From: Chiloscyllium plagiosum
Lineage: Eukaryota
Direction of reading: 5' to 3'
Assembly: GCF_004010195.1 (NCBI RefSeq)
Contig: NC_057758.1
Location: 5,216,972 to 5,280,971, forward strand
Length of the DNA: 64,000 nt
The translations under genes and the position numbers were made by a program. The notes under the pieces were generated by a model. That model did no database searches. It saw only the letters and a list, made by a program, of their open reading frames with translations, and was not told the DNA's origin. This document shows, piece by piece, positions 5,708-64,000 of this stretch (its first letter is position 1; each line of letters starts with the position of its first letter).

Positions 5708-5710
5708 AAA

Positions 5711-6601: not shown

Positions 6602-7270
6602 ATTGAGTAAGCAACAGGAGCTGGGACTGCCATCACCCCTCCCCCATCATCCACAAGGGAATGAGCAACAGGAGATGGGTTTGCCCTCTCCCCATTCCTA
6701 TCATCAACAAGTGAGTGGGCAATAGGAGATGGGTCTGCCCTCTCCCCATTCCTATCATCAACAAGTGAGTGAGTAACAGGAGATGGGTCTGCCCTCTCCC
6801 CATTCCCATCCTCCACAAGTGAGTGAGCAACAGGAGCTGGGACTGCCCTCTTCCCTGCCACATCATCCACAACGTAGTGAGCAACAGGAGATGGGTCTGC
6901 CCTAACCCCGCCGTCATCATCCACAAAGGAGTGAGAAACAGTAGCTGGGACAGCCCTCTCCCCTCCGCCAGCATCCACAAGGGAGTGAGCAAATTGATCT
7001 GGGACTGCCTTCTCCAATCCCCCTCCTCCACATGGGAGTGATCAACAGGAGCTTGGTCTGACATCTCCCCAATCCCATCATCCACAAGGGAGTGAGCAAT
7101 AGGAGCTGGGCCTGCCCTCTCCCCATTCCCATCATCCACCATGGAGTGAGCAACAGGTTCTGGGACTGCTCTCTCACCTCCTCCATCATCCACAAGGGAG
7201 TGTGCAACAGGAGCTGGGATTGATCTCTCCCTCCCCACCCCGCCGATCATCCACGAGGGAGTGAGGAATT
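6602..7270. repeat. 54-bp minisatellite, about 12 copies
   Basis: Unit core (caacagg or variant) recurs at 6612, 6666, 6720, 6774, 6828, 6882, 6936, 6990, 7043, 7097, 7151 and 7205. Confidence 0.95.
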
Positions 7271-7582
7271 ACTGTTTGGGTTTCAAGTCTGGTGCATGTG
7301 TATGTGCGTGTCAGCGGAGAGAGGGATGGAAGGGCCAGTCAGTGGCAGTCCTCAATCAACTGTTGTGCTGCTTTCTCCCTCAACAGTTAACTGCCTCCCA
7401 CACTCATCCGGCCCATCATGCATTCATCGGGACCGTTTGAAAGAATACCAATTTATGAAGCAAACCGACAGGTATTCTGCAGGAAAAGCAAGTTCCAATG
7501 GTCATAGGGCAGACACAGAGACGCAAAGTCGGCAGCACTTCAAGTAGCTGATTGACACACCATGACATTTCAGGGACAAAGA

Positions 7583-8229
7583 TAAAAATCACACAGCACC
7601 ACGTTATAGTCCATCAGGTTTATTGGAAAGTACGAGCTTTCAGAGTGCAGTCCTTCAGGTAACTAGTGCAGCAGGGTCATAAGACACTGAACTTATAGTA
7701 AATGATCGCAGTGGTATGCAATTGAAATCATATATTAAACAAATCTAGATTGCTATTAAGTATTTCATCTTTTAGAATTTATTGCAGGTTTAGCTTCATT
7801 AATATGCAGTCCCAGAACTTCTTTTAAGTCACATTCTCGAAATAACTGAAGGTTTTATGAAACAAAGCGACATCTCAGCTCAAACAACGTATTAAAGGTG
7901 TGAGGTTAAAGTCTGTCTGTATCCCAATCTTGAGTCAGACTGGTTCAATTTCCAAAGCAGGAATTTATAAAATGTGATAGGGATTGACTTTCTGGGCTGT
8001 GTGGTTTTTGAGCAAAAATAGAATGTGTTTGAAAATGCAAATTCACCAGGTAGACATATATATGTGTATGTGCCTGTATGGAAGAGTGTTTGAGTGTGTG
8101 TTTGTGTGTGTGCATGCTTGGTAGAATGTGCTCATGAGTTGATAAAGTTTAAATCTGTTCGACTACAACCTGGTGTTGTGTGATTTTTAACTTTGCCCAC
8201 CCCAGTCCAACACCAGCTCCTCTACATCA
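7583..8229. mobile_element. Penelope-like element terminal fragments in inverted arrangement
   Basis: AAAATCACACAGCACC...TTATAGTCCA at the left and its reverse complement at the right; same family as 19293-20977. Absent from paralog B. Confidence 0.8.
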
Positions 8230-8551
8230 TTTTCTGGGATAATTAGAGATGGGCATCTACTTTTGGCCTCGCCAGTAACACTCCCGTTCAAACATTTTCC
8301 AAAATGTTCAGACATGCTCCCTGTGTTAAAAATAAACAACTGAATCACACTGTCTCCGTTGTAATTTGAATATGTGCGTTATCTGCTCATGACTTCCTGA
8401 ACCAGCCTGACTTCTGCGGCCTCCCTATGTGTGGGGATTCTCACTGACTAACCCTGCTCACCTTTTGTCCCCATGGAACAAGAATCCTGCAATCTTTGTC
8501 AGGAGAGTTAATGTTTAAACATACTTTCAAACAGCTCGTGAGTTACGCCAG

Positions 8552-8865
8552 GCCGGGACCGTGGCTAGCGTTGCTGCCTCACATCGCCATGGACCTGGGT
8601 TCGATTCCAGCCTTAGGCGAAAGTGTGGAGTTTGGTCATTTTTCCCATGATTGCGTGGGTTCCTTCCTGGTGCTCCGGTTTTCTCTCACAATCCAAAGAT
8701 GTGAGCTTAGGTGAATTGGACATGGTAAATTGCCCCGTGATCATGGATGTGTAGGTGAGGTATATCAAGGGTAAATATAGGGTAAGGGAATGGCTCTGGG
8801 TGGGTTACACTTCCGCGGATCGGTGTGGACTTGGTGGACCGAAGGGCCTGAAGGAATTCTATTCT
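8552..8865 (+). mobile_element. tRNA-derived SINE (HE1-like)
   Basis: B box GGTTCGATTCC, shark SINE core, CR1-like tail GGACCGAAGGGCCTG..ATTCT. Confidence 0.8.
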
Positions 8866-9899
8866 ATCTGAAAGACGCACAGTACCACAGGTCACACTAT
8901 TTAACAAAAATGAACTTTATTATGTGAATGAAAAGTAAAACGAAGAAGCATACTAACATAGAACAATGTTTGCTTAAAACAATTTCTGCAATGTTTGGAA
9001 TTTGTTTTACTTTTATAGCCCAGGATGATTATCTCATGAAGCCTTGAAGATCTTCATTGGTGACATTGTTCCAATGCATTTTATATGTAAGGGGCTGCTT
9101 TGATTTTTTTTCCCTGATCCCCAGTCAGAATAAACACTATTTAATTCTCAGTCAACAGCTTCCTCAATTTGGCTTTTCAGTTTCCTTGCCAACACTTTGT
9201 TTCTTCCACAACATGCTGAGGTTTAATTTGCTCTTTTCTGAACTGGTAACTGACTGTTTTAGTCTGTATTAATTCAGTAGTGGCGGGCACATTTAATGTT
9301 TGATGTCATTTAATGCCTAGTTGCTGATGCCTTTGTCTACTCTATTGAAAATTTTTGCATTGAGATTTTGTCGGTAGTTTCTCCAGCTTCTGCACTGTCC
9401 AATACTTCAATTTATGAATTTCAAATCAGTTCCATGCTGGGCTGGAGTCCAAATGTAGAGGACTTCTCACTCACAGGCATTACTTCAGAACTGTGACTCT
9501 CCATTCAAGGTTGCGAAAACAGTAAAGTGCCCACAAAATCATTTCCCTGTGTTGAATTCACATGATTAGTAAGTAACGAGCAAACAAAACAATAATAAGA
9601 GACTGTACTCCCAAAGTGAAATGTCAATTCACTCTGAACAACGGACAATAAGTCATAGGTGCAGAAGTAGACCATTCAGCGCATCAAGTCTGGTCAGCTA
9701 TTCAATCAGGTCACCACAATTGATCTGATAACCCTCAACTCCAATGACTTGCCTTTTCTCTTAAAACGTTGATTTCCTTCCTGATTAAAACCGGTCCATC
9801 TCAGCTTTCAGTACACTTAATACGCCAGCCTCAATAGTACTCGTTGATAACAAGAAAGTATCTCGTTCATACACAAACGACCAAATATTATGAGATTAC

Positions 9900-10765
9900 G
9901 CACTGTGGTGCTCGACTGGGGGCCTGTGACAAGTGGAGTGCCACAAAGATCGGTGCAGCGTCTAGTAGTTTTCGTCATTTATATAAAGGATTTAGATGTG
10001 AACATAAGGAGTATAGTTAGTAAGGACAAGGGACTAGTTAGTAAGACTTATTCACTTAATGGAAAGGTCCTAAGGAGTGTTGCTGAACAAGGAAAACGTA
10101 GAGTGCAGTTTCATAGCACTTCGAAGGTGGAGTCGCAGGTAGATAGATAGTGGTATGCTTTTCTTTATTGGATAGAGTATTGAGTACAGGAATTGAGAGG
10201 TCATGTTGCGCTGTACAGGACATTGGTGTGGCTTCTGTTCGAAAATTGCAATTCTGGTCTCCTTCCTATCCGAAAGATATTGTGAAACTTGAAAGGGTTC
10301 AGAAAAGATTTACAAGGATATTGCCAGGTTTGGACGACTTGAGGTATAGGGAGAAGCTGAACAGTCTGGGCCTGTATTCCCTGGAGCGTCAGAGGCTGAC
10401 GGGTGACCTTACAGACATTTCCAAAATGATGAGGGGCATATATAGGAAAAATAGACCAAGTATTTTTCCATGGGGTGGGGGAGTCCAAAACTAAAGGGCA
10501 TAGGTTTAGGTTGAGAGAGAAAAGATATAAAAGAGACCTAAGAAGCAACTTTTTCATACAGAGTGTTGTACTTGTATGGAATGAGCTGTCAGAGGAAGGG
10601 GTGGAGGCTGGTACGATTACAACATTTAAAAGGCAGTTGGATAGGTATATAAATAGGAAGAGTTTGGAGAGATGTGGTTCTGGTGCTGGCAGGTGGGACT
10701 AGTTTGGGATGGGATATCTGGTTGGCATGGATGGGTTGGACATTTCTATGACTGTATGACTCTAT
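9900..10765 (+). mobile_element. CR1 LINE 3' fragment
   Basis: VTSGVPQ.S, QFWSP.Y.KDIVKLERVQKRFTR and VWNEL motifs; ATGACT-type tail. Confidence 0.92.
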
Positions 10766-12229
10766 CACTCAAACTGACTTTAATTTAATGCCTCATCATA
10801 TGTCAGCTCTCGCCTGGAAATCCCTCCTTTGAATTGTGAACATGAAGACAGGAAGCCATTCTGTAAGCCAGAATGTGCCAGGCTGAGTGAGGAAAAATGT
10901 CATCAGCAAAAGTAGAAATTGCTGGAAAAGCTCAGCGGGTCTGGCATCATCAGTGGAGAGAAATCACAATTTAAAGTTTCAAGTCGAGGGACTCTTCCTC
11001 AGAACATTAATCGATGTCACTGTCTTTTACAGAGCAGGATACCTCACTTTCCAGAAAATGTCCCCTTCCCTAGATTCACTTCCCGAACGTGCAATCCTTG
11101 AAAGTCATCAATTTAACCCCGAATGAGAAAAGAACAGAAAAACAATAAAATGCTCCCAGATGATTTCCCACAGGAGTATGGTTCAGTGTGGGTGAGTCTC
11201 CATCTTCATTCAGAGAGAGATGAGGAGCAGCAGCACCTTCTCTGGACACCAATCAGCAGCTTCATTGTCCCAATTCCGCATTCAGACAAGAGGGGAGCGC
11301 TGAGTAGCTGGAGGACCAGCTTTCTTCCAGTCCTCCAGGGTTTCCCATTGGCCAACAGTGAGGCTAGTCACTGGAGGGCTCAAACTCCTCCTGGGAGTGC
11401 GCTATTCTGATTTGTAGCTCAGTCAAAATATTGATTTGTTTGTAAGTAAATCAACTCATCGAGGTTATCCACCCCAGCACATCCACATTATTTTCTTGTA
11501 CAAGTGGGGCCTTGCATCTTGCCAACCCTCTGTATTCAATCGTCCAGATCAATGAATTCAGGAACAGTTTCATATAAAGCTGAAGGGTGCCAAGATGTGG
11601 AAACAAGTGTTTCTTTTGATTGAAACATTTGTCTGAAGTTAATCTGGGATATAGCATTGAGGGACAGCTTTTAATCAAATGGGGAGGAGAGTTTCTGCAC
11701 TTTGCATCTATTGTACTGGCTCATGTACACACCAAAGATAATTCACAGTCCTTTTTGGAACGCCTATATGTCCCTAGGTTTGTCGCTCAAACAGATCACT
11801 GGTTCACAACTCAGAACTCATTCAAGCAGCTCTCACATGCTGGATTTCAACTTTCCCTGGAGTTGGCCAATACAAGATTAAACGATTGTGCAATTAGGAA
11901 AAAAGCTCCATCTCCTTTTCTCTCCCATTTCACCTACATACGACTGTAGGAACATGAAATTAAGGAGGATGAATGAGCACTTCAACCTCTCCAGCCTGCT
12001 CCTCCACTTGACCATGGTTGATCTCATCTCGACCTTAACACCACTTTTTTGCCTATAAACTTCAAACAGTTACAAATTAGAAATCTGTCTGTATCCTCCT
12101 TTCAACTTATTAAATATCCTGTCATCCACCACACTGTGGGAAATGAATTCCAGCCTTTTGAGAACACTCGAGAGAATAATTACTCTTCATCCTTCTTTTA
12201 AATCTGATACCCATTATTCTCATTTTTTA

Positions 12230-13125
12230 AAACATTCTCTCATGGTACATGCGCATTGCATGCTCAGGTAGTATACATTCCCCATTCCTAATTGCCATTG
12301 AGAATAATGGGTGAGTTGCTGTCTTGAACAGCTGCACCCGATGTGCTATAGGTTAACCCACAATGTCCTTCGTGAGGGAATTCGAGGAATGGAATTGAAT
12401 TGAATTGAATTTATTGTGATGTGTACCGAGGCACTGTAAAATTCTTTATCTTGCGAGCAATACAGGCAGATCACGTAATTAAGTCGCATAGATAAGTAAA
12501 AAATTGGTAACCAGCGGCAAAAACAGAAACACAGGTCCATGCGAATGTTAAAGATTTGAGAGAGGATTCAGGATTCTAACAAGAGTAGGGTAGAAAAGGT
12601 TTCGACACCGGCTGGTGCTTGTGTTCAGGCTTCTGTAGGTTCTCCCCGATGCGAGCGTGTATAGAAAAACATTGACAGTTTGGGATGGATCTTTGAGAAT
12701 GCTGGCGACCTTTCCTTGACAGCGGGCCTGGTAGATGGATTCTACAGATGGGACTTCGGCCTTTGTGATTGTCTGGACTAAGTATACCACACTCTGTAAA
12801 CCAGCGACACTGAAGGAATGGCTGATATATTTCCAAGTCAGAATGATGAGTGTCTTGGAGGGGAGCTTGAAGTGGATGACGTTCCCATGTATCTGGTTCC
12901 CTTATCATCCTAGGTGGAAGAGGTCATGAATTTGGAAGTTACTGTCGGAGAATCATTCATGACTTTCTGCAGTACATCTTGTGCGTAGTACCCACTGTTG
13001 CTTCTGAGTGTCAATGGTGGAGGGAGTGGATATGGTGCTAATTGAGCAGGCCTGGTCGGTGTCAAGCGTTTTAAATGTTGTCGGAGCAGCAACCGTCCAG
13101 GCAAGTGGGACACCACACTCCAGAG
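12230..13125 (-). mobile_element. L2/CR1-clade LINE 3' fragment with a nested Rex1/Babar-type LINE 3' end (about 12392-12798); mirror at about 60810-61700
   Basis: Insert encodes PSVESIYQARC..K..SILKDPS...L.SGR.YRSL.T.TSR.RN.FYP and has a (CAATT)n tail; flanks are the common shark LINE 3' end. Confidence 0.75.
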
Positions 13126-13334
13126 ACGCAACAGCAAGACACAAACATCTGTGACCTGTGTTTCTCTGTTACTCCCCTGGCTCTTTCTATTTCCCCTGCT
13201 GTCTCTCAATCACAAAGTGCCTTGACTCTCTCTCTCTCTCGCACAAAAACACACGCACACACACAGACACACCATTTCTATCCTTCCACTCTCTGCCTGT
13301 CTTGAGCTCTCTGACAGTCCCTCTCTCTCGATAA

Positions 13335-14085
13335 ATGGGAGGTATTGCACAAACAAGGATAGGTCTCATACAATTCATGGGTAGGGCCTTGGGTCGTGTT
13401 TTTGAACAGAGGGACCTTGGAGGCCAGGTACATAATTCTTTAAAGTTTGTGCCACACTTGGACAGGATGGTTAAAACGTTTTTGGCACACTTTCCTTTAT
13501 TGCTAAGTCCTTTGAGTATAGGAGTTGCGATTCCCATAAATGTTGAGATTGTACAGGATATTAGTGAGGCCTATTCTGGAATAGTCTGTCCAGTTCTGGT
13601 CGCCCAGTTATTGGAAGGATATTATCACACTAGAGATGGTTCAGAAGATAATTACCAGGGTTCTGCCAGGTACGGAACGTTTGAGTTAAAACGAAAAGCT
13701 TGATAGTGCTGGGACATTTTTCACTCGAACATAGGAGGTTGAGAGGATACCTGACACAAAACAATGAAGGATATAGGTGTAGTTGATGGTAGTTATCTTT
13801 TCCTTAAATGGGGAATTTCAAGACTGGGAGCACATTGTTAAAGTTGGAGGTGAGAGATGTATAAAATACATCAGAGGCAACTTTTCTTTATACAGAGAAA
13901 ACTTTCTAATGAAATGGTACAAGTAGGTACAATGACAAACTTTAAAAGACCTTTGGGTGGATATATGACTAGGAAAGGTTTGGAGGGATATGAGCCAGGA
14001 GCAGGCAGCTCAGACTCGTTTAAAGTCGGATTATTATCAGGATGTAATAGGTGGAACAATGGTCTGTTTCCATCCTATAAAACTC
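13335..14085 (+). mobile_element. CR1 LINE 3' fragment (mirror about 59935-60600)
   Basis: EQRDLG.QVHNSLK and CR1 3' motifs. Confidence 0.85.
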
Positions 14086-14434
14086 TCAGTCTCTCTGTCC
14101 ATCTCTCTCTTTCAATACCTGCATTTCTGTCTCATGTCTCTCTCTCTCTCTCTCTATCCCCCAGGGAACAACAGTGCCAGTGTTGTTCTGACAGGGATCT
14201 CAAAAGTCCAGATACCACCATCGCTGCTTCCTTGCCTGAGCAGACCTGGGCTGGAGTCCAGATCCCCAGGTTGCATGCGTACTCATTTCTCATTGGCAAA
14301 GGCTGGAGCACGGGGTCTAGGGTGAAATGAAGCAGTGAATCCCGGACTGTTACATAATACAGCTCATTACACATGGAGCGTCTGTATATGAAAACACAGC
14401 AAACAGGTACCAGCAAAACCTACTGGTTTGTGAT

Positions 14435-14832
14435 CTGGAGCATCGGAGGCTGAGGGGTGACCTATCCAGATTTACAAAATTATGAGGGGCATGGAGAGCA
14501 TAAATAGACAAAGTCTTTTTCCTGGGATGGGGGAGTCCGAAATTAGAGGGTATAGGTTTAGGGTGAGGGGGGGGAAGATACAAAAGAGACCTAAAGGGCA
14601 ACGTTTTCACGCAGATGGTGGTACGTGTATGGAATGAGCTGCCAGAGAAGCGGTGAAGGCTAATACAATTGTAACATTTAAGAGGCATTTGGATGGGTAT
14701 ATGAATAGGAAGGGATTGGAGGGATATGGGCCGGGTGTTGGCAGGTGGGACTAGATTGTGTTGGGATATCTCATCAGCCTGGACGAGTTGGGCTTAAGGG
14801 TCTGTTTCCATGCTGTACATCTCTATGACTCT
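14435..14832 (+). mobile_element. CR1 LINE 3' end (mirror about 59185-59580)
   Basis: RRLRGDL..VWNELP motifs, ending CTCTATGACTCT. Confidence 0.9.
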
Positions 14833-14927
14833 ATTTCTCTCACTGCCTATCCCCAATCTGTTTCAATCACTAAGTCTCTCTCTCTCTCTGTTGCTGTCAC
14901 TATTTCAAACCTTCACTCGTTGTCTGT

Positions 14928-15589
14928 TGTTATGAAATTGAAGGCATGTGCTGTATCTTTAAGAGAGAGATAATGTTGTTCTGAACCGAGAGCTTGTAAG
15001 CATCTGTCGAAATGATTAGGTGGCAGTGCCAGAGTGTACCGGAAAATTGAAAATATATAATTTTTGGCTGTGACATGGAAACCTGAATTTTGGTTGCTGT
15101 TTTGACAACAATTCGAATTTAACCAAAAAGTTTAAAGTCTCCCCCAGGATACTAAAATCCAATTGAGTTTGAATTCATTGTTTTGCCAACATTGATCCAA
15201 TGAGATGATCCGATGCATTTCCATGTGAAACATAAAAAGAGGATGACTGAGGGAGACGCTCAGCCAATAGAAGATAGACACGAAAGAAGACAGTCGCTTT
15301 GTTGTCTTGAAATTAAGTTGATGTATTTTAATTAAGTACCTTATTGGAACACTATATAGTTTTACAGTTGGAGCCAGACAGTAAGTAGTTAAAAGAAGTG
15401 GGGTGGTTAGAGTTATGAATAATCATTTATTGTTCACTTTTTGAGTTGAAAAATAGATTGATGTTACTTTCTTTAAATAGTGGAATTTAGAAGTTCTCTG
15501 TCACTCCTATTTTAACAGATTATGAAGCGAGAAAAGCGTTTCATGTTGTTTGGTTTAAATAACAGAAGGGTTCACCTCTGTTCGTAACA
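14928..15589 (+). mobile_element. Solo LTR with 4-bp target-site duplication
   Basis: Termini TGTTATGAA...TTCGTAACA; CTGT on both flanks. Confidence 0.88.
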
Positions 15590-15768
15590 CTGTCTTGATC
15601 ATTGTCACCGTACGTCTTCCTTTTTTCTCTCTGCCCTTCTCTCTCTCTCTCTCTCAATAGTTGTCTTTTTTTCTCTCTCTCCCTTCGCTTTCTGTCTCAC
15701 AGTCTGTCACTGTTCTCTCACTATGTGGATCACGACCTCTTTCTGTGTCTCACATGTTCTGTCCACCT

Positions 15769-16340
15769 TATTTGTTCTCTCTGTTTCATCGCCCCCGTTG
15801 AGTAAATTGATCTATCTGCAGCAATGTCACCATCTGTCACTTTTTGTTTCATTAGCCGTCCAGATGCAGTGGTCCCAGGTCCAAGAGAGGGGAAAGGACA
15901 GTATTTCTAGTGTACCGTAACCCCGGTCCCCAAGTGGGAGAAGAAGAGTGTGTCTAACACGTTGTGAACCTATTTGTTCTCTCTGTTTCATAGTCTCCGT
16001 TGAGTAAATTGATCTATCTGCAGCAATGTCACCATCTGTCACTTTTTCTGTTTCATTAGCCGTCCAGATGCAGTGGTCCCAGGTCCAAGAGAGGGGAAAG
16101 GACAGTATTTCTAGTGTACCGTAACCCCGGTCCCCAAATGGGAGAAGAACAGTGTGTCTAACACATTGTGAACCCCGGTCCCAGAGTAGGGACAGTGTAT
16201 CTAATGCACCATGGCCCCAGTCGCAGAGTGGGGAAAGGATAATGTATTTAATGCATTTTGATCCGCAGTCCTAGAGCGGGGCATTTTATGTAATGCAGCA
16301 TGACGTCTATTTCCAGATGACGGAAAGGACAGTGTAATTC
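15769..16340. repeat. ~202-bp near-perfect tandem duplication (15769-16173) overlapping a degenerate ~45-bp minisatellite
   Basis: 15769-15970 is repeated at 15971-16173; single copy in the right arm (about 58045-58240). Confidence 0.9.
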
Positions 16341-18418
16341 ACTATGAATGTTGTTTCTGTTTTTTCAAATGTCAAATATGGACTCAATGAATGAGACCCT
16401 TGGGAGATCTTACAATCTGTCAGTAGGATTAGATAATGAAGCCATCTTTCTTCTTGACCTCAATCTTATTACATCTCAAAGAACAATATAGCACAGGAAC
16501 AGGCCCTTCAAGCCTGCACCGCCACATTTTTCTCTCCCTTACTAAAGCTGTCTTCTCTTACAGGATCAGTATCCCTCCACTCCCAGTTATGCTTTCACCC
16601 AGGTACTTGTTGATTCATAAAAGTGCTTCAATCACCTCCTCTGGCAATGTGTTCCACTCCTCACCCCTGATGTCAAAACATCGACTTGCGCATCTCTTTT
16701 GAACTTCCTCTTATCACACCTTGAACCTGCGTCCCCGAGTAATTGACGCCTCTCCCCTGGGAAAAAGCCTCATACATTCCACTCTATCACGCCACTCACA
16801 ATCCTGAAAATTTCTCTTAGGTCGTCCCTGAACCTCCTATAATCGAGTGAAAACATACCCAGTTCAGGCAACCTTTCTTCAAAGCTCCAATCTTTCACAC
16901 TCGGCAACATCCTGGTAAACCTTTAGTGCACCCTTTCCAAAGGATCCACATCCTGGTAGTATGGTGACCAGAATTGGGAGCATCATTCCACGTCTGGCCG
17001 AACTAAAGTTCTATAAAGCTACAGCATAGTTTCCCTACTCTTACACTCAATGCGCCTTGCACTGAAATCAAGCATGCCATATACCTTTTTTACTGCCGAA
17101 TCTATCTGCACTGCTACCTTCAGTGATCTGTGGACCTGCACACTCAGAGCCCCCTGCATGTCAATACTCTTAAGGGTTCTGTCATTCACTGGATAATTTC
17201 CACCTGTAGGTGGCCTTACAAGATACATCACATCACATTTGGCAGATTAAACGTCATCTGCCATTTTTATGCCCACGCCTCCAACTGATGAACATCCTGC
17301 TGCATCTTCTGACAATCCTCCTCACTATCCGCAACTCCACTGACATTTGTATCATCCACAAACTTACTAAACAGATCAGTTACATTTCCCTCCAAATCAT
17401 TAACTTGATCACGAATAGCTGAGGTCCCAGCACTGATCCCGATGGAACACCACTAATCATAGAGTCATAGAGATATGCAGCACAGAAACAGACCCTTCGG
17501 TCCAACTTGTCCATGCTGACCTGATATTCCAACCCAATCTAGTCCGACCTGCCAACACCCGACCACTATCACTCCAAGATTAGAGTGTTGATGGAAAAAC
17601 ACAACCCCACTCTAATCTTGACTCAAATCTCCAGCATTTTCAGTACCCACTTCTGCCATATTCCTACAAACCCTTCTTATTCGTTAAACCATCCAAATGC
17701 CTTTTAAATGCTGTCACGAACCAGCCTCCACTACTTCCTCTGGCAGCTCATTCCACATACGCGCCACATTCTGTGTGAAAAGTTGCCCCTGAGATCTCTT
17801 TTGTATCTTTCCCCTCTCATCGTAAACCTATGCCTTCTAATTCTGGACTCCCCGACTCCAGGGGAAAAAAGAACGTTGTCTATTTATCCTATCCATGCCC
17901 CTCATGGTTTTATAAACCTCTATAAGTTCACGACCATCCATTCCGAAAAGAACCTTCCCCAGCTACCTTCTGTCTCCTATGACTGTGCCAGTTCTGCATG
18001 TGCCTTGCCAGCTCTCCCTAATCCCAAGTGACTTCCCCTTTTTGACAATCTGCCATGGGGGATCTTGTCAAGGGCTTTACTGAAGTCCATGTGGACAACA
18101 TCAACTGCTTTTCCCTGATCAATCATCTTCGTTACCTCCTCAAAAAACCCGATCGATTTTGTGTTGCATGACCTCCCCTGCACAAAACCATGATGTCTAT
18201 CTCTATCCAGTTTGGTTACTTCGAAAAACATATAGACCGTGCCCCAGAGAATCTTTCCCAATAATTCGCCTCCCATCGATGTGAGACACATAGGGTGTAA
18301 GTTCTTAGTTTATCCTTGCGGTCCTTCTTACATGGTGGGACGATGTGAGTAGTTAGTTTTGGACTAGAGTGGACAATGTTAAAAATCACACAACACCAAC
18401 AACAGGTTTAATTGGAAG

Positions 18419-18453
18419 CACTAGCTTTCAGAGCGTTGCTCCTTCATCAGGTG
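18419..18453 (-). ncRNA. Minimal type I hammerhead ribozyme motif in a Penelope terminus (host fragment about 18360-18763)
   Basis: CAC-CUGAUGA-A-GGAGC-AAC-GCUCU-GAAA-G-CUA-GUG. Confidence 0.7.
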
Positions 18454-19292
18454 GTTGTGGAGTAAAAGATCATAAGACACAGAACTTATGAAATGTCATA
18501 AAACATTGAACAAACCTGGATTGCTAAGTCTTTCATAGTTTAGAATGATTTGCAAATTTCAGTTCATTAATATGTAAATCCCAGAACTTCTTTTAGTCAC
18601 CTTCTCGAGATAACTTTAGGTTTTGTAACAAATGGTGACATCTCAGCTCAAACAATGCATCAAAGATGTAAGGTCAAAGTCTGCATGTATCCCAATCCTG
18701 AGTCAGACTGGTTCTATTTCCAAAGTAGAATTTATGAAATATCACATGTATTAACTGCCTGTATAGGCCGTGAGTTATTCAGCAGTCCTCTGGGACATCA
18801 CCTATGGCCAAAGAGGATAAAACGATGTCTGCCAATGCTCCAATAATTTGTTTTCTTGCCTCCCTCAATATTCTGGGACAGATCCCATCAGGACCTGGGG
18901 CTTTGTCTACTATAATATGTTTTAAAATGCAAAACACCTCTTCCTTTTTAACAGTAACTTGGCTGAGAAATTCCCCATTCCCCTCCCTGAGATCATCACC
19001 CACCAATTCCTTTTCCTTGATGTGTACCGACATAATTTATTCATTTGGGCCTCACCTACCTCTTCTGACTCTACACATAATTTCATTCCTTTATCCTTGA
19101 GTGGGTGACCTCTTGCCCTGGTTACGTTCTTGCATTTCTTTTAAAAAGCCTTGGGATTCTTCTTAATCCTGTTTACTAATTGCTTTTCACGACCCATTTT
19201 AGCCCTTTTAATTCCTTGAATAATTTCTTTCCTAATTTCCTTCTTTGCTTCTAGAGCTTTGGCATGTCCCATCCTCCTAAACCTTAGGAAGT

Positions 19293-19743
19293 GAAAAATC
19301 ACACAACACCAGATTATAGTCCAACAGGTTTATTTGGAAGCACAAGTTTTCTGCGCACTGCTCCTTCATCAGGTGATTGTGGAGAATAAGATCGAAGGAC
19401 AAAGAATTTATTGCTAAAGTTTGCAGTGTGATTTAACTGAAATTATTTATTGAATAAGACTTGGATTGTTTGTTCAGTCTGTCATCTTTTATAATGGACA
19501 TGTTGGTTTTAGTTCTTTCATATGTAAATCCCAGAACTTTCTTGAAGTTATATTCTCAAATGAACTTTATCATGTTGGTCCAGATAATACATTGAAGGTG
19601 TAAGGATCCACCTGTGAGGCTGTCTGTGCCCCAGTGATCAGACTGACACTAATATAAAAAAGCGATCTCCAGAATCTTACATGGGTTTAAGCCGTTTTTG
19701 GTCAAAATAAAATGAAATTCTGCAAGTGCAAGTTCACCCCGCA

Positions 19744-19793
<50 letters not shown>

Positions 19794-29584: not shown

Positions 29585-29589
29585 GCTAA

Positions 29590-31780: not shown

Positions 31781-31829
31781 GACTCCTATCCCAGATATCC
31801 TAGATTCATCTTCTTCCATTTGTCGGCAC

Positions 31830-34985: not shown

Positions 34986-34994
34986 AAGCTAGTG

Positions 34995-36075: not shown

Positions 36076-36099
36076 CTTCTGGAATTAATATTTCTTTTA

Positions 36100-36420: not shown

Positions 36421-36479
36421 TTTTACTTGTTGCATCTTTCCATGTCTTCCTTTTCGTTTAATGTTACTTTTTACATGCT

Positions 36480-38172: not shown

Positions 38173-38174
38173 TT

Positions 38175-48974: not shown

Positions 48975-49361
48975 GTATCTGACATGGGAGCTGTGCAAGT
49001 TTACCTTATGAATCTCCAATTAGCGCAGACTAGTACCTCTTTATGAGACGAGTTTATCTTGCTAGCAGATGCCTAACTTCGCTGGGTATGTTTGTCTCAC
49101 CTGATGAATGGCTTAGGGCCTGTACGAGTGATTCGTCAAGCGTATACAGACCTGTCAATTATATTTTCTTCCTTACGAATTATTGTCTTTCTCTGTTGTC
49201 TGTCGAATTAAGAACATGCAATGTTTTTGTAAACTTTCATACAAAGGAAGCAACTTTGTATCAGTACATCAGAGTAGCCTGATGGGGTACTTGAAGAGCT
49301 GGTACCCTACTCTCCTAGGTTATTTGAACTCAGTTAACTTAGCTTAGAGGTGTAAGAGTTT

Positions 49362-53300: not shown

Positions 53301-54417
53301 CACTGCTCCTTCATCAGCTAGTTGTGGAATATAAGATCGTAGGACACAGATTTTATAGCAAAAGTTTACAGCGTGATGTAACTGGACTTATGTATTGAAG
53401 GAGACCTGCATTGTCAAATCTCTCATCTTTTCGAATGGGCATGTTGGTGTCTGTTCTTTCATATGTAAATTAAAGAACTTTCTTAAAGTTACATTCTCAA
53501 GTGAACTTTAACCCTCGGTGCCATGTTGGCTCAGATAATGCATTGAAGGTGGGAGGTGTCCTGCGTGAGGCTGTCTGTGCCCCAGTGTTCATACTGATTG
53601 TAACCTAAAAAAAGGGATTTACAGAATCTTACATGGGTTTAACTGTTTTTGAGCAAAATAAAAGGTAATTCCTCCAGGACAAATTCACCCCACAAACTTA
53701 TATGTGTGTGTGTGCATGTGGGTGTGGGAGTGGGTGGAGAGGGGTTATGAGTGTCTGTGAGAGAGTGCGTGTATGTGTATGTGTGTGCGTGAGTGTACCG
53801 GGGTATAAGTCAGAGAGACCGTGCTTGTGTGAGCGTGGGAGTACATGTGTGAGCTTATAAGAGAGGGTATGCGTGAGTGAATGGGTCTGCAGGCGTGCGT
53901 GTTTGTCTTTAGTAGTGTCTGTCTGTGATAGTGTGTGTGTGATTGTGTGTGTGTATGTATGTGTGTGCGTGTGTGTGCGTGTGTGTGTGTGTATAGTGCA
54001 GTGGGGTCACCTGTCGGGTGAAATAAACCCAAGTTCCCGGTTGAGGCCATTTCCCTGAATATGTGTCAGGTAATAATGTGACTCGGCCACCATTGTCTCT
54101 TTCTTACAAGTCAAGGCAGGCAAGGATGCCCTGAGACATGGTACATTGGTGAGACCAAGCAGAGGCTACGGCAATGGATGAATGGGCACCACACAGCAAT
54201 CAACAGACAGGAGTGTTCCCTTCCAGTCGGAGAATACTTCAGCGGTCTGGGACATTCGATCACAGACCTTCGGGTGACCATCCTCAAAGGCAGACTTCGG
54301 GACAGGCAACAATGAAACGTGGGTGAGCACAGGCTTACAGCCAAGTTCAGTCCCAATGGAGATGGCCTTAACTGGAACCTTGGATTTATGTCACACTACA
54401 GGTGACCCCACTACACA

Positions 54418-54471
<54 letters not shown>

Positions 54472-55746
54472 GGGGTGAACTTGCACTTGCAGAATTACAT
54501 TTTATTTTGCTCAAAACGGCTTAAATCCATGTAAGATTCTGTAGATATCTTTTTTAGATTAGTGTCAGTCTGAAAACTGGGGCACAGACAGCCTCACAGG
54601 TGGATCCTCACATCTTCAATGTATTATCTGGGCCAACATGACAAGGTTCGTTTGAGAATATAACTTCAAGAAAGTTCTGGGATTTTCATATGAAAGAACT
54701 GAAACCAACATGTCCATTCTAAAAGATGACAGACTTAACAAACAATCTAAGTCTTATTCAATAAATAATTTCAGTTAAATCACAGTGCAAACTTTTGCAA
54801 TAAATTCTTTGTCTTTCAATCTTATTCTCCACAATAACCTGATGAAGGAGCAGTGCGCAGAAAACTTTTGCTTCCAAATAAACCTGGTGTTGTGTGATTT
54901 TTCACTTCTAAGGTTTAGGAGGATGGGAAATGCCAAAGCCCTCGAAGCAAAGAAGGAAAGTAGGAAAGAACTTATACAAGGAATTAAAAGGGCTTAAATG
55001 GGTCATGAAAATTAATTAGCAAACAGGATTAAGGAGAATCCCAAGGCCTTTTCTTTTAAAAAAAAAGCAAGGACGCAACCAGGGAAAGAGTTCACCCACT
55101 CAAGGACAAAGGAATGAAATTATGTGTAGAGTCAGAAGAGGTAGGTGAGGCCCAAACGAATAATTTATGTCGGTACACACCAAGGAGAACGAATTGGTGG
55201 ATGATGATCTCAGGGAGGGGAATGGGGAATTTCTCAGCGAAGTTACTGTTAAAAAGGAAGAGCTGTTTTGCATTTTAAAACATATTAAAGTAGACAAAAT
55301 CCCAGGTCCTGATGGGATCTGTCCCAGAATATTGAGGGAGGCAAGAGAACAAATTACTGGAGTATTGACAGACATCGTTTTATCATCTTTGGCCATAGGT
55401 GATGTCCCAAAGGACTGGTGAATAACTGACGGCCTATACAGGCAGTTAATACATGTGATATTTCATAAATTCTATTTTGGAAATATAACTAGTCTGACAC
55501 AAGGTTGGGATACATGCAGACTCTGACCTGACACCTTTGATGCATTGTCTGAGCTGAGATGTCACCATTTGTTACAAAACCTAAAGTTATCTCGATAAGG
55601 TGGCTAAAAGAAGTTCTGGGATTTACATATTAATGAACTGAAACTTGCAAACCATTCTAAAACATGAAAGACTTAGCAATCCAGGTTTGTACAATGTTTT
55701 ATGACATTTTATAAATTCTGTGTCTTATGATCTTTTACTCCACAAC

Positions 55747-55781
55747 CACCTGATGAAGGAGCATCGCTCTGAAAGCTAGTG
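55747..55781 (+). ncRNA. Minimal type I hammerhead ribozyme motif in a Penelope terminus
   Basis: CAC-CUGAUGA-A-GGAGC-AUC-GCUCU-GAAA-G-CUA-GUG. Confidence 0.7.
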
Positions 55782-58427
55782 CTTCCTAATAAACCTGTTG
55801 GAGTATAATTTGGTGTTGTGTGATTTTTAACATTGTCCACCCTAGTCCAAAACTAGCTATTCACATCGTCCCACCATGTAAGAAGGACCTCAAGGATAAA
55901 CCAGGAAATTACAGCCTATGTGTCTCACATCGATGGGAGGCGAATTATTGGGAAAGATTCTCTGGGACACGGTCTACATGTATTTCGAAACAACCAAACT
56001 GGATAGTGATAGACATCATGGTTTTGTGCAGGGGAGGTCATGCAACACAAAATCGATCGGGTTTTTTGAGGAGGTAACGAAGATGATTGATGAGGGGAAC
56101 GCAGTTGATGTTGTCCACATGGACTTCAGTAAAGCCTTTGACAAGGTCCCTCATGGTAGATTGTCATAAAGGGGAAGTCACATTGTTTTAGGGGAGAGCT
56201 GACAAGGCACATATAGAACTGCCACAGTCATGGGAGACAGAAGGTAGCTGTGGAAGTTACTTTTCAGAATGGATGATCGTGACCTTATAGAGGTTTATAT
56301 AACAATGAGGGGCATGGATAGGATAAATAGACAAAGTTTTTTTACTCTGGAGTCGGAGAGTATAGAACTAGAGGGCACACGTTTAGGGTGAGAGGGGAAA
56401 AGTGTAAAAGAGATCTCAGGGGCAACTTTTCACACAGAAGGTGGCGCGTATGTGGAATGAGCTGCCAGAGGAAGTGGTGGAGGCTGGTTCGTGACAGAAT
56501 TTAAAAGGCATCTGGATGGGTTAACGAATAAGAAGTGTTTGGAGGGATATGGCAGAAGTGGGTATTGCAAATGCTGGAGATTTGAGTCAAGATTAGAGCG
56601 ATGTTGTGTTTTTCCAGCACCACTCTAATCTTGGAGAGATAGTGGCCGGGTGCTGATAGGTGAGACGAGATCGGGTTGGGATATCAGGTCAGCATCGACA
56701 ATTTGGACCGAAGGGTCTGTTTCTGTGCTGCACATTTCTATGACTCTATGATCAGTGGTGTTCCATCGGGATCAGTGCTGGGACCACAGTTATTCGTGAT
56801 CAAGATAAATAATTTGGAGGGAAATGTAACTGATCTGTTTAGTAAGTTTGCAGATGATACAAAGGTCAGTGGAGTTGCGGATAGTGGGGAGGATAGTCAG
56901 AAGATGCAGCAGGATATTTATCAGTTGGAGACATGGGCAGAAAAATGGCAGGTGACGTTTAATCTTCCAAATGTGATATGATGTATCTTGTAAGGCCACG
57001 TACAGGTGGAAATTATCCAGTGAATGTCAGAACGCTTAACAGTATTGACATGCAGGGATGTCTGGGTGTGAAGTTCTACAGATCATTGAAGGTAGCAGTG
57101 CAGGTAGATAAGGCAGTAAAAAAAGGCTTATAGCGTGTTGACTTTAGTGCAAGACGCAGTGAGTATAAGGGTCAGGAAATTATGCTGTAGCTTTATAGAA
57201 CATTAGTTCGGCCACACGTGGAATGATGCTCCCGATTCTGGTCACCACACTACCAGGATGTGGATCCTTTGGAGAGGGTGCACTAAAGGTTTACCAGGAT
57301 GTTGCCGAGTGTGGAAGATTGTAGCTTTGAAGATAGGTTGTCTCAAGTGGGTTTGTTTTCACTCGTTCATAGGAGGTTCAGGGACGATCTCAGAGAAATT
57401 TCCAGGATTGTGAATGGCGTGGATAGAGTGGAAAGTATGAGGCTTTTTCCCAGGGCAGAACGGTCAATTACTCGGGGACGCAGGTTCAAGGTGTGATGAG
57501 GGGAAGTTCAAAAAGAGATGCTCAAGACGAGGTTTTGACACCAGGGGTGGGGAGTGGAACACATTGCCAGAGGGGGTGATGGAAGCACTTTTATGAAACA
57601 ACAAGCACCTGGGTTAACACATAACTAGGAAGGGAGTGGAGGGATACTGATCCGGTAAGTGAAGACAGCTTTAGTAAGGAAGAGCAAAATGTGGCGGTGC
57701 AGGCTTGAAGGGCCTGTTCTTGTTCTATGTTGTTCTTTGAGATGTAATAAGATTGAGGTCAAGAAGAGAGATGGCTTCATTAGCTAATCCGACTGACAGA
57801 TTGTAAGATCTCCCAAGGGTCTCATTCATTGAGTCCATATTTGACATTTGCCAAAACATAAACAACATTCATAGTGAATTGCACTGTCATTTCCCTCTTC
57901 TGGAAACAGACGTCATGCTGCATTACATAAAATGTCCTGGTCTAGGACTGGGGATCACAGTGCATTAAATACATTATCCTTTCCCCACTCTGCGACTGGG
58001 GCCATGGTGCATTAGATACACTGTCCATACTCTGGGACCGGGGATCACAATGTGTTAGACACACTGTCCTTCTCCCGCTCAGGGACCGGGGTCACGGTCC
58101 ATTAGAAATACTGTCCTTTCCCCTCTCTGGCACCACTGTATGAGGACGGCTAATGAAACAGAAAAAGTGACAGATGGTGGCATTGCTGCAGATAGATCAT
58201 TTTACCCAACGGGGAATATAAAACAGAGAGAACAAATAAGGATGGACAGAGCATGTGAGACACAGAAAGAGGTCGTGATCCACAGAGCAGGAGCCAGTGA
58301 GAGGACAGTGACAGACTGTGAGACAGAAAGAAAGGGGAGAGAGAGAAAGATAGACAACTATTGAGAGAGAGAGAGAGAGAAGGTCAGAGAGAAAAAGGAA
58401 GAGGTACTGTGACAGTGATCAAGACAG

Positions 58428-59088
58428 TGTTACGAACAGAGGTGAACCCTTCTGTTATTTAAACCAAACAACATGAAAAGCTTTTCTCGCTTCATAATCT
58501 GTTAAAATAGGAGTGACAGAGAACTCCTAAATTCCACTATTTAAAGAAAGTAACATCAATCTTTTTTTCAGCTCTAAAAGTGAACATTAAACGATTATTC
58601 ATAACTCTAACCACCCCACTTCTTTTAAATGCTTACTGTCTGGCTCCACTTCTATAACTATATAGTGTTCCAATAAGGTACTTAATTAAATTACATCAAT
58701 TTAATTTAAAGACCACACAGCGACTGTCTTCTTTCGTGTCTTTCTTCTACTGGCTGAGAATCTCCCTCAGTCATCCTCTTTTATGTTTCACATGGAAATG
58801 CATCGGATCATCCCATTGGTTCAATGCTGGCAAAACAATAAATTCAAACTCAATTGGGTTTTAGTATCCTGGGGGAGAATTTAAACTTTTTGGTTAAATT
58901 CGAATTGTTGTCAAAACAGCAACCAAAACTCAGGTATCCATGTCACAGCCAAATATTATATATTTTCAAATTTCCAGTACAATCTGGCACTGCCACCTAA
59001 TCATATAGACAGGTGCTTACAAGCTCTCGGTTCAGTACAACATTCTCTCTCTCTAAAAGGTACAGCACATGCCTTCAATTTCATAGCA
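58428..59088 (-). mobile_element. Solo LTR (mirror of 14928-15589) with ACAG TSD
   Basis: TGTTACGAA...TTCATAGCA; ACAG on both flanks. Confidence 0.88.
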
Positions 59089-62000
59089 ACAGACAAAGAG
59101 TGAAGGTTTGAAATAGTGACCGCAACAGAGAGAGAAAGACTTAGTGATTGAAACAGATTGGGGATACGCAGAGAGAAAAATAAAGTCATAGAGATGTCCA
59201 GCATGGAAACAGACCCTTAAGCACAGCTCGTCCATGCTGGCCAGATATCCCAACACAATGTAGTCCCACTTGCCAACACCCGGCCCATATGCCTCCAATC
59301 CCCTTCCTATTCATATACCCATCCAAATGCCTCTTGAATGTTGCAATTGCACTAGCCTCCACCACTTCCTCTGGCAGCTCATTCCGTACACGTACCACAC
59401 TCTGCGTGAAAATGTTGCCCCTTAGGTCTCTTTTGTATTTTCTCCTCTCACCCGAAACCTATACCCTCTAATTTCGGACTCCCTCATCCCAGAAAAAAGA
59501 CTTTGTCTATTTATCCTCTCCATGCCCCTCATAATTTTGTAAATCTGTGTAGGTCACCCCTCAGCCTCCGATGCTCCAGATCACAAACCAGTAAGATTTG
59601 CTGCTGCCTGTTTGCTGTGTTCTCATCTCCAGGCTCTCCATGTGTAATGAGCTGTATTATGTAACTGTCCGGGATTCACTGCCTCATTTCACCCTATACC
59701 CCGTGTCCCAGCCTTTGCCCATGGGAAATGAGTACGCATGCAGCCTGGGGATCTGGACTCCATCCCAGGTCAGCTCAGGCCAGGAAGCAGCGATGGTGGA
59801 ATCTGGCCTTTTGAGATCCCTGTCAGAACAACACTGGCACTATTGTTCCCGGGGGGGAGAGAGAAAGAGAGACATGAGACAGAAATGCAGGTATTGAAAG
59901 AGAGAGATGGACAGAGAGACACATTTTATAGGATGGAAACAGACCATTGTTCCACCTATTCTATCCTGATCATAATCCGAATATAAACGAGTCTGACCTG
60001 CCTGCTTCTGGCCCATATCCCTCAAATCTTTCCGAGTCATATGTCCTCCCAAAGGTCTTTTAAAGTTTGTCATTTTAACTACTTCTACCATTTCATCAGA
60101 AAGTTCTCTCTGTATAAAGAAAAGTTGCCTCTGATGTATTTTATACATCTCTCACCTTAACCTTAACAAAGTGCTCCCCGTCTTGAAATTCCCCATTTAA
60201 GTAAAAGATAACTACCATCAACTACATCTATGTCCTTCATTGTTTTATGTCAGGTCTCCTCTCAACCTCCTTTGTTCAAGTGAAAAATGTCCCAGCACTC
60301 TCTAGCCTTTTGTTTTAACTCAAACGTTCCGTATCTGGCAGACTCCTGGTAATTATCTTCTGAACCTTCTCTAGCGTGATAATATCGTTCCAATAACTGG
60401 GCGACCAGAACTGGATTTCTGGTCCAGTAATGAAGGAAAGTGTGCCAAAAAAAAATTAACCATCCTGTCCATGTGTGGCACAAACTTTAAAGAATTATGT
60501 ACCTGGCCCCCAAGGTCCCTCTGTTCAACAACACTACCCAAGGCCCTACCCATGAATTGTATGAGATCTATCCTTGTTTGTTGTACCAAAACGCAAAACC
60601 TCACATTAATCGAGAGAGAGGGACTGTCAGAGAGCTCAAGACAGGCAGAGAGCGAAGGATAGAAATGGTGTGTCTGTGTGTACGTGCGTGTGTGAGAGAG
60701 AGAGAGAGTCAAGGCACTTTGTGATTGAGAGACAGCTGGGAAAATAGAAACAGCCGGGGGAGTAACAGACAAACACAGATCACAGATGTTTGTGTCTTGC
60801 TATTGCGTCTCTGGAGTGTGGTGCCCCACCTGCCTGGACGGATGCTGCTCCGACAACATTTAAGAAGCTTGACACCGACCAGGCCTGCTAAATTAGCACT
60901 ATATCCACTCCCTCCATCATTGACACTCAGAAGCAATAGTGGGTACTACGCACAAGATGTACTGCAGAAAGTCATGAATGATTCTCAGACAGTAACTTCC
61001 AAATTCATAACCTCTTCCATCTAGAATGGTAAGGGAACCAGATACATGGGAACATCACCGACTTCAAGCTCCCATGCAAGACACTGATCATTCTGACTTG
61101 GAAATATATCAGCCATTCATTCAGTGTCGCTGGGTTACAAAGTGTGGTGTACTCAGTCCAGACAATCACAAAAGCCAACGTCCCTTCTGTAGAATCCATC
61201 TACCAGGCCCACTGTCAAGGAAAGGCCGCCAGCATTCTCAAAGATCCATCCCAACCTGTTAATGTTTTCTATACCCGCTAGCATCGAGGAGAACCTACAG
61301 AAGCCTGCATACCAGCACCAGCCGGTTTCGAAACATTTTCTACGCCACTGTTGTTAGAATCCTTAATGTTTACTCAAACTTTTAACATTTGCCTGGACCT
61401 GTGTTTCTGTTTTTGCAGCTGTTTACCAATTATTTACTTATCTATGCAACTAAATTACGTGATCCGCCTGTATTGCTCGCAAGATAAAGATTTTTACAGT
61501 TCCTTGGTACACGTGACAATAAATTCAATTCAATTCAATTCCAATCCTCGAATTTCCTCACTAAGGACATTGTGGGTTAACCTATAGCACATCGAGTGCA
61601 GCTGTTCAAGACAGCAACTTACCCCCTAATTCTCAAGGGCAATTAGGAATGGAGAATGTATACTTGCTGAGCATACAATGCTTATGTACCATGAGAGAAG
61701 TTTTAAAAATGATGATAATGGGTATCAGATTAAAAAGAAGGATGAGGAGGAATTATTCTCTCAAGTGTTCGCAAAAGGATGGAATTCACTTCCAACAGTT
61801 TGGTGGATGACAGGATATTGAATAGGTTGAAAGGACGACACAGACAGATTTCTAATTTGTACCTGATTGAAGGTTTATGATGGATAGGCAAAAAAGTGGT
61901 GTTAAGGCCGAGATGAGATCAGCCATGGTCAAGTGGAGGAGCAGGCTGGAGAGGTTGAAGTGCTCACTCATCCTCCTTAACGTCATGTTCCTACAGTCGT

Positions 62001-63174
62001 ATGTAGGTGAAATGTAGAGGAATGGAGATGGAGCTTTTTTCCTAATTGTTCAATGGTTTAATCTTGTATTGCCCAACTCCAGGGAAAGCTGAGATCCAGC
62101 TGGTGAGGGCTGATTGGATGAGCTCTAAGTTGTGAATCAGTAATATGTTTGAGAAACAAACCTCGGGACGTATAGGCGTTCCAAAAAGGACTGTGAATTA
62201 TGTTAGGTGTGTACATGAGCCATTACAATAGATGTAAAGTACAGAAATGCTCCTCCCCATTTGATTAAAAGCTGTCCCTCAATGCTACCTCTCAGATTAA
62301 CTTCAGACAAATGTTTCAATCGAAAGAAACACTTAATTCCACATCTTGGCACCCTTCAGCTTTATATGAAACTGCTCCTGGATTCATTGATCTGGATGAT
62401 TGAACACAGAGGGTTAGCAGGATGCACAGCCCCACATGTACAAAGGAATAATGTGGATGTGCTGGGGTGGATAACCTCGATGAATTGCTTAATTTACAAA
62501 CAAATCAATATTTTCACTGAGCTCCAAATCAGAATCGCGCACTCGCAGCAGGCAGTTTGAGCCCTCTAGTGACTAGCCTCACTGCTGGCCAATGGGAAAC
62601 CCTGGAAGACCGGAAGAAAGCTGGTTCTCCAGCCAATCAGCGCTCCCCTATTATCTGAATGCGGAATTCGGACAATAAAGCTGCTGATTGGTTCCCAGAG
62701 AAGGTGCTGCTGCACCTCATCTCTCTCTGAATGACGATGGAGACTCACCCACACTGAACCATACTCCTGTGGAAGATCATCTGGGAGCATTTTATTATTT
62801 TCATGTTCTTTTCACATTCGTGCTTAAATTGATGACTTGCAAGGATTGCACGTTCGGGAAGTGAATCTAGGGAAGGGGACTGTTTCTGGAAAGTGATGTA
62901 TCCCGCTCTGTAAAAGACAGTGACATCGATTACTGTACTGAGGAAGAGTCCCTCGACTTGAAACTTTAAAATGTGATTTCTCTTCACTGATTATGCCAAA
63001 CCCGCTGAGCCTTTCCAGCAATTTCTACTTATGCTGGTGACATTTTTTCCTCACTCAGCCTGGCACATTCTGGCTAACAGAATGACTCCCTGTCTTAATG
63101 TTCACAATTAAAAGGAGGGATTTCCAGGCAAGAGCTGACATGTGATGAGCATTAAATTAAAATCAGATTGAGTT

Positions 63175-64000
63175 ATAGAGTCATACAGTCATATAAATGT
63201 CCAACCCATCCATGCCGACCAGGCATCCCAACCCAATCTAGTCCCACCTGCCAGCACCAGAACCTCATCTCTCCAAACCCTTTCTATTCATATACGCATC
63301 CAACTGCCTTTTAAATGTTGTAATTGTACCAGCCTCCACCACTTCCTCTGACAGCTCATTCCATACACGTACCACCCTCTGTATGAAAACGTTGCTCCTT
63401 AGGTGTCTTTTATATCTTTGCTCTCTCGACCTAAACCTATGCCCTTTAGTTCTGGACTCGCCAATCACATGGAAAAATACTTTGTCTATTTATCCTATAT
63501 ATGCACCTCATCATTTTGTAAATCTCTGTGAGGTCACCCGTCAGCCTCCGGTGCACCAGGGAATACAGCCCCAGACTGTTCAGCTTCGCCCTATACCTCA
63601 AGTCCTCCAAACCTGGCAATATCCTTGTAAAACTTTTCTGAACCGTTTCAAGTTTCACAACATCTTTCCGATAGGATGGAGACCAGATTTGCAATTTTCG
63701 AACAGAAGCCTAACCAATGTCCTGTATAGCCGCAACACGACCTCCCAATTCCTGTCCTCAATACTCTGTCCAATAAAGGGAAGCATACGAAATGCCTTCT
63801 TCACTATCTCTCTACCAGCGACTCCACCTTCAATGTGCTATGAAACTGCACTCCAAGTCTTCCTTGTTCAGTCACACTCCTTAGGATCTTACCGTTAAGT
63901 GAAGAAGTCTTGCTAACTAGTCCCTTGTACTTACTAACTATACCTCTTATGCTCACATCTAAATCATTTATATAAATGACGAAAACTACTGGACGCTGCA
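63175..64000 (-). mobile_element. CR1 LINE 3' fragment (mirror of 9954-10765)
   Basis: ORFs 63265-63468 and 63446-63694 carry CR1 motifs. Confidence 0.92.

Follow-up and report, generated by a model that had tools for sequence, protein, structure and literature searches.

Layered inverted copies of a low-copy unit in Chiloscyllium plagiosum suggest a duplication cluster formed in three events

In the window, the 64,000-nucleotide stretch of the Chiloscyllium plagiosum genome analyzed here (43.6% GC, repeat-rich, vertebrate DNA), one unit occurs in four copies that fall into three layers of divergence, at 25–29%, 8%, and 4%. The explanation that we favor, with moderate confidence, is that the locus is a stratified, low-copy segmental-duplication cluster that grew in three events around a decayed, noncoding unit, whose arms are drifting apart neutrally and in which the unit is a passenger. 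Self-BLAST combined with sensitive re-alignment bore out the order originally proposed, namely A forward, B′ inverted, a gap, B forward, and A′ inverted, with B′ (25844–29084) an inverted copy of B, the homology of which already starts at 25195, and A′ (62589–64000) an inverted copy of A. As had also been stated, A and B′ lie within one contig and B and A′ within the other, the only N run in the window being the 500 N at 29085–29584. The symmetry of A with A′ and of B with B′ spans this gap, and the outer palindrome therefore relies on scaffolding: the arms are inverted in the scaffold but lie on two contigs, and none of the read-contig pieces listed spans both. The evidence from beyond the window comes from four public runs aligned to 35000–50000, three of DNA (X1, X5, and organism B) and one of single-cell RNA. 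The features discussed below are the following.

6597–11371, plus strand: unit A, including the 54-bp array at its left end (blocks collinear with B, 65–73% identity)
6597–7268, plus strand: 54-bp tandem array (TRF period 54, 11.8 copies)
9954–25195, plus strand: outer left arm, comprising the end of A and the spacer U (inverted match to 64000–49093)
11003–11371, minus strand: block 1 of A, unique and CCAAT-bearing, present in all four copies (counterparts: B, 41765–42140; B′, from 25844; A′, from 62589)
25190–25200, no strand: derived junction, U joined directly to the end of B (alignment of the three ends)
25195–29084, minus strand: inner left arm with B′, ended by the gap (inverted match to 42788–38832)
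29085–29584, no strand: scaffold gap, 500 N
35124–38180, no strand: part of the spacer likely to belong to a multicopy B-type segment (high-depth variant contigs)
38180–42788, plus strand: unit B with its upstream flank, the part homologous to A being 38180–42140 (self-BLAST, re-alignment)
42788–49093, no strand: segment V, old repeats nested over 6.3 kb, right arm only (no left-arm partner)
49093–64000, minus strand: outer right arm, comprising U′ and, from about 62570, A′, running off the window (inverted match)

The oldest layer is the paralogy of A and B. The two are collinear over five blocks with identities of 65–73%, in agreement with the original prediction; the 66% of its counted block (35 of 53 positions identical) falls within this range, but that block itself could not be located.

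7182–7550 in A, 38180–38559 in B: 65% identity
8230–8532 in A, 38569–38866 in B: 71% identity
8869–9049 in A, 38881–39058 in B: 66% identity
9103–9853 in A, 39347–40056 in B: 66% identity
10874–11371 in A, 41636–42140 in B: 73% identity

When bases matching elsewhere in the window, two CR1-like copies, and the 54-bp array were masked, four collinear blocks remained (1,491 columns, 65–71% identity, E values of 4e-25 to 3e-58), whereas 17 of 20 control windows scored no higher than 28.3 bits, and each of the remaining three overlaps B′, B, or A′. No further matches to the unique blocks lie in the window outside the units. In a block shared by all four copies, 101 sites support the pairing of A with A′ and of B with B′ and none supports either other topology; in this block A and A′ differ by 7.3%, B and B′ by 2.8%, and the A types from the B types by 24.9–28.1%. 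Shared old repeat remnants, which we take to be of the CR1 and Penelope kinds, are also present as described, at about 9640–9850/39856–40056 (23.5% diverged) and at 10900–11002/41664–41764 (21.1%), and the flanking unique blocks are comparably diverged (26.0% and 28.9%). The younger insertions in A and B differ, again as noted before. Thus the CR1-like stretches 10158–10741 and 40960–40388, with an 81% match, stand in opposite orientation and so represent two separate insertions, and this match was discarded as evidence of paralogy. In the upstream flanks of A and B, LTR-like matches (73–75%) were likewise set aside as unit homology because of their opposite orientation and repeat-level depth, and re-alignment of the DNA to the left of A (5700–6600) with the spacer gave no homology.

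A dispersed repeat, hitting hundreds of loci or losing its A/B similarity on masking, had been named as the outcome that would overturn the original prediction. In the unique B bins (38507–39508), the summed contig depth, which is a proxy and gives no copy number, is 43 and 50 in X1, 61 and 131 in X5, and 64 and 40 in organism B, while CR1 bins sum to 1–14 million across the three DNA runs (1–4 million in X1); the unique B depth therefore lies four to five orders of magnitude lower. Since the blocks persist on masking and the depth is low, the dispersed-repeat reading fails: the unit is low-copy and is not a high-copy dispersed transposable element. It is highly improbable, too, that A and B arose as separate insertions of some rare mobile element or composite cassette and were later caught in one duplication. 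The depth of block 1 exceeds that of the other parts of B, as could be the case for a low-copy repeat, but A and B hold old repeat insertions in common, at matching positions and with equal divergence, no terminal repeats, transposase, or reverse transcriptase were found in the unique blocks, and the depth contrast with CR1 applies here as well. Collectively, these results support the proposed local, low-copy duplication with inverted copies.

The four copies terminate a pair of long inverted arms, which self-BLAST identified as 9954–29084 against 64000–49093 plus 42788–38832, such that the stretch of 14 kb separating A from B′ is mirrored as well (9954–25195 against 64000–49093). The arms are not of one age. 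The outer arms differ at 1,172 of 14,788 aligned sites (7.9%; BLAST identity 90.1–91.6%) and the inner arms at 152 of 3,884 (3.9%), a highly significant step (Fisher's exact test, P = 3.7e-20), and the best change point in divergence, 25040 (interval 23431–25349), has the junction at 25195 within its interval. Two nested rounds predict equal divergence of A from A′ and of B from B′, so that the observed 7.9% and 3.9% call for a third event; the statement that there were at least two rounds is literally true, but a clean two-round model fails. Moreover, the arrangement of A facing B′ does not represent an old inverted pair: it is chimeric, with 8% divergence on one side of the join at 25195 and 4% on the other.

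At 25195 the left arm lacks the 6.3 kb that is present on the right as segment V, and the two sides of the join have a microhomology of one base, or of three if a loss of two bases is allowed. Two repeats are whole on the right across 42788 and 49093 and are cut on the left, which polarizes the junction as derived on the left. At 42788, LTR-like homology (15030–15173/42767–42907, E = 4e-12) spans the position, with the family resuming at 45441–45560, and, among the records listed, an X1 contig with one difference bridges it in the right-arm form. At 49093, an organism B contig, again among the records listed, bridges the position in the right-arm form; this contig may represent another copy of the repeat, in which case the repeat would still be whole on the right. 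The left-arm form of the junction is absent among the 15 of 8,634 joints listed. V itself differs from X1 contigs at 6 letters in about 2,250 bases among the records listed. Its surroundings at 42650–45600 form an insertion nest in which an LTR-like repeat is broken by a related one in opposite orientation (42928–45035), itself interrupted, and at 48300–48975 lies the 3′ end of a non-LTR retroelement, with an A-rich tail and a weak zf-RVT match (E = 0.012), inside a moderately repeated element.

Microhomology-mediated template switching is an established source of joins of this kind. We propose the following history, in which an old duplication would first have given rise to the A and B types, the homology of which, at 25–29% divergence, is observed. 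The window does not show that this oldest round was inverted, as had been predicted: A and B have the same orientation there, and an inverted first event is only suggested by B and A′ lying head to head in the right contig, where examination of two places revealed no junction. The alternative is a direct duplication with inversions at a later stage. A second duplication, inverted and covering at least 15 kb, would then have produced the outer arms (7.9%), the adjacency of which depends on the scaffold join. In a third event, a B-type copy in inverted orientation, now 3.9% diverged from B, would have taken the place of the inner end of the left arm, possibly through repair of a break by template switching or microhomology-mediated break-induced replication, with either the mirror arm or another B-type copy as template; a template switch at one to three bases of microhomology would explain by a single event both why V was lost and why the age changes at the junction. 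Judging from contig depth, the B-type segment probably has further similar copies, either collapsed or lying in the gap.

A two-round history can be retained if a head-to-head block of B, V, U, and A was inverted and duplicated once, V was then deleted on the left, and gene conversion homogenized the inner arms. This gives the same anatomy, and it draws on conversion between palindrome arms, which is established (PMC8600007, in the text available), and on a weak gradient in outer-arm divergence (rho = −0.55, P = 0.026), which falls mildly from 9% to about 6.6% nearing the junction and allows for some conversion there. However, the conversion boundary would have to coincide with the deletion junction (interval 23431–25349), and the divergence of the inner arms is even, at 2.7–6.3%, without long identical tracts, the longest identical run between the arms being 113 bases. 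We regard this alternative as unlikely.

A second alternative, to which we attach a low probability, is that the outer symmetry is an assembly product, in which paralogous loci or X/Y gametologs were joined through scaffolding links drawn by similarity. All A/A′ and B/B′ matches do cross the 500-N gap, V is at low depth, and the outer-arm identity of 90.1–91.6% is close to the 89.5% of the young X–Y stratum that the available part of PMC11406177 gives for the white-spotted bamboo shark, the Y of which carries autosomal segments at 85–100%. Against this, each contig alone has an A-type and a B-type copy, 7.9% is far above the allelic level (a plain allelic false duplication was rejected on the same ground), and derived changes are evenly distributed between the arms in a symmetric test (167 left, 175 right, P = 0.71). 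The available text of PMC11406177 also reports that no amplicons were found on the bamboo shark Y. An apparent arm-wide asymmetry in rate (155 left, 246 right) had reversed when the other arm served as query (251 versus 172) and was gone in the symmetric test, which identifies it as alignment bias; an argument from male-biased mutation fell with it, and there is no GC-direction bias between the arms (440 versus 463).

Several smaller features of the arms were recorded. Substitutions between the outer arms (9954–25195 against 49093–64000) comprise almost as many transitions as transversions (583 and 589), a ratio that is low for vertebrate neutral DNA. The left arm alone carries a 204-bp tandem doubling at 15769–16174 (96%) and stretches of 74 and 83 bases at 13510–13584 and 24375–24458.

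Contig depths, taken from 24 listed pieces of about 667,000, suggest that B has more relatives than the window displays. Among the records listed, five near-identical X1 contigs in or at V have depths of 6.8–8.8 and three B-like contigs 25.6–30; in X5 the corresponding values are 8.1 and 13 for V against 46.5–52.5 for B-like contigs. Two copies 4% apart would be expected to reach about 1.3 times the depth of one, and because the observed ratios are higher, there are likely about four or more B-type copies, or half as many if V is hemizygous. The further copies are probably collapsed or inside the gap at 29085–29584. Among the records listed, B-like contigs extend past 38832, where B′ meets the gap, into 35124–37435, with high-depth variant contigs at 35124–35436, 36158–36481, and 37113–37435 (coverage of the runs began at 35000). 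The duplicated segment would thus be longer than B, probably comprising at least 35.1–42.8 kb. In the overlap of B and B′, four of the seven variants listed match B′ and three match neither. The B-like records listed differ from B by 2–3 letters in about 300 in X1 and by 9–26 in X5; hence X1 and X5 may differ in their dominant B type, and unseen B-type copies may be closer to B than the visible arms are to each other. A Penelope-like hairpin at 37973–38182 cuts B at its left, and high-depth paralog contigs among the records listed carry the same cut (rows 38180–38225), which would place the cutting of the unit before the multiplication of the B-type copies. Over V and U′, eight listed records of organism B are about 6–12% from the window; if these are orthologous, the outer duplication would be roughly as old as the split from organism B and the inner one younger. 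For 6400–11500, the fraction of sampled words present in the best DNA run is 0.43, though V matches that run almost exactly, which would fit A having several close paralogs.

Tests of the unit itself point away from a present coding function. Block 1 is its best-kept unique part (71% between A and B after masking), and CCAAT motifs occur in block 1 of all four copies, three of them in A′, which makes block 1 a candidate old promoter. On the minus strand of A, the CCAAT block, splice-like sites at aligned places (found by eye), and the 54-bp array follow a layout that suggests a decayed gene. B retains about 75 bases of the array, at 38187–38261, and variability within the array is equal across the three codon positions. 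The possibility that the unit is coding was rejected: codon periodicity was absent in six of six tests (P = 0.32–0.62), of 24 indels in the four main blocks only 4 have lengths divisible by three, and no protein match was found. The searches behind this last point were phmmer with the read-through of block 3 against 1.84 billion representatives (0 matches), protein word searches with the unit, which were empty and constitute weak evidence, and Atlas, in which the array frame reached a best score of 0.77, at chance level. Pfam returned only retroelement domains at or near significance, Lipase_C, PhnJ, and Cullin_Nedd8 being weak and under the cutoff, and no immune domain in the frames scanned (P0001, the array frames, and 12 read-through frames of four short regions); Rfam returned 0 matches. 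RNA depth on the unique B bins is 0–0.06 in one single-cell run (about 2 in 100 read, tissue unspecified), and no RNA run was among those listed as containing sampled words. Neither the ampliconic nor the immune-cluster analogy drawn in the original prediction thus has a gene, a codon signal, or RNA behind it, and an immune-type gene cluster is not what these frames contain.

It is doubtful, but compatible with the proposed duplication history, that the unit represents the 5′ end of a fast-evolving family of genes, either long noncoding or coding and lineage-specific, that is still live or died recently and whose promoter serves as a core duplicon. The CCAAT motifs and the splice-like sites would fit this, and block 1 is both the best kept and the deepest unique part, with depths of 57–73 in X1 and 200–262 in X5, exceeding the rest of B, and of 283–921 in organism B at 41897 and 42052. 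Block 1 has also changed less in A than in A′ (7 versus 21, P = 0.013; 8 versus 18 in the symmetric test, P = 0.076); its depth and this slower change are the only hint of function, and were noted post hoc. Set against these are the lack of a protein match or codon signal, the absence of a CpG island over block 1, the near-zero RNA depth on the unique B bins in the single-cell run, and a truncating insertion common to the B-type copies. More speculatively still, the window could be the outer shell of a copy-number-variable carpet-shark amplicon that grew by fold-back around a CCAAT-rich core-duplicon promoter of an unannotated, lineage-specific transcript, with live copies hidden in the gap or outside the window and with further, independent amplification of the block in a related species; if so, sharks would have an equivalent of the ampliconic loci of mammals, but we judge this quite improbable. 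The decayed, noncoding unit of the three-event cluster remains our preferred reading.

Segmental duplications are defined by a length of at least 1 kb and an identity of at least 90%. The two arm pairs, one of 15.2 kb with 7.9% substitutions and the other of 3.9 kb with 3.9%, fall within these bounds, and the copies combine unique DNA with inherited repeats at low copy number, for which depth serves as a proxy; the A/B layer (65–73%) lies below the cutoff and counts as an ancient duplication. In the available portions of the papers cited here, the closest analog is SD12A1 on mouse chromosome 12 (PMC13688818), which likewise has inverted arms around a spacer, about 93% identical there, with younger blocks inside (97.1% and 98.6%), and which, like the shark locus, gives no sign of ongoing arm-to-arm conversion in the text available. 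SD12A1 extends over megabases and bears genes, whereas the visible shark arms are 19 kb and no gene was found in them; in addition, the shark arms each nest a far older layer (25–29%), and their center is a gap. The red amplicon of the primate DAZ cluster (PMC2322974, as far as available) is similar in having four copies in two head-to-head pairs that arose by successive duplications at one locus, but there an inverted duplication was followed by a direct one and the gene is an expressed Y gene, whereas the second shark round was inverted, the shark pairs are of unequal age, and no gene or sex linkage is established. Palindromes of the Y and X (PMC8600007 and PMC13616518, in their available parts) share the inverted arms and spacer, and the probable collapse of near-identical copies; their ampliconic families have identities of at least 97% and are expressed in testis, a level of identity that the shark arms, at 92.1% and 96.1% with a longest identical run of 113 bases, do not reach. 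Finally, as in core duplicons such as that at 8p23.1 (PMC5088589, in the text available), one sub-block, block 1, is found in every copy, seemingly with the most copies. The core at 8p23.1 marks breakpoints, and the mapped shark breakpoint (25195/42788) sits about 650 bases upstream of block 1, within repeats. Block 1 is at most a candidate core, present in all four copies and the deepest unique part of B, but with no RNA in one run and with the mapped junction outside it.

No description of such a shark locus was found in the literature searched, in which coverage of the group is thin; the word "palindrom" is absent from the main text of PMC11406177 and from the available part of the main text of 10.1101/2025.02.26.637739. 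This silence reflects thin coverage rather than new biology. The locus is a small, clear example of the layered growth of a duplication cluster, with three ages and one mapped breakpoint of known polarity, and its gap is the place where young copies have probably collapsed. It also serves as a warning that, where the arms are mosaic, mirror symmetry across a scaffold gap can pass for a palindrome built neatly in two steps. Its importance would be greater if block 1 drives a transcript or if the locus is sex-linked.

The neighborhood of the units contains further elements. Within the spacer, frames at 31400–31800 on the minus strand look exon-like by eye and have 0 Pfam matches. Beside unit A, positions 1–5800 on the minus strand hold a decayed endogenous retrovirus-like element with stops and frameshifts and with Pfam matches to RVT_1 (E = 1.9e-9), RNase_H (3.5e-9), and MLVIN_C (8.6e-7); it has no second copy in the window. 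Short hairpin insertions at 36511–37109, 37973–38182, and 35659–35845, presumably of the Penelope-like kind, have arm identities of 72–77%.
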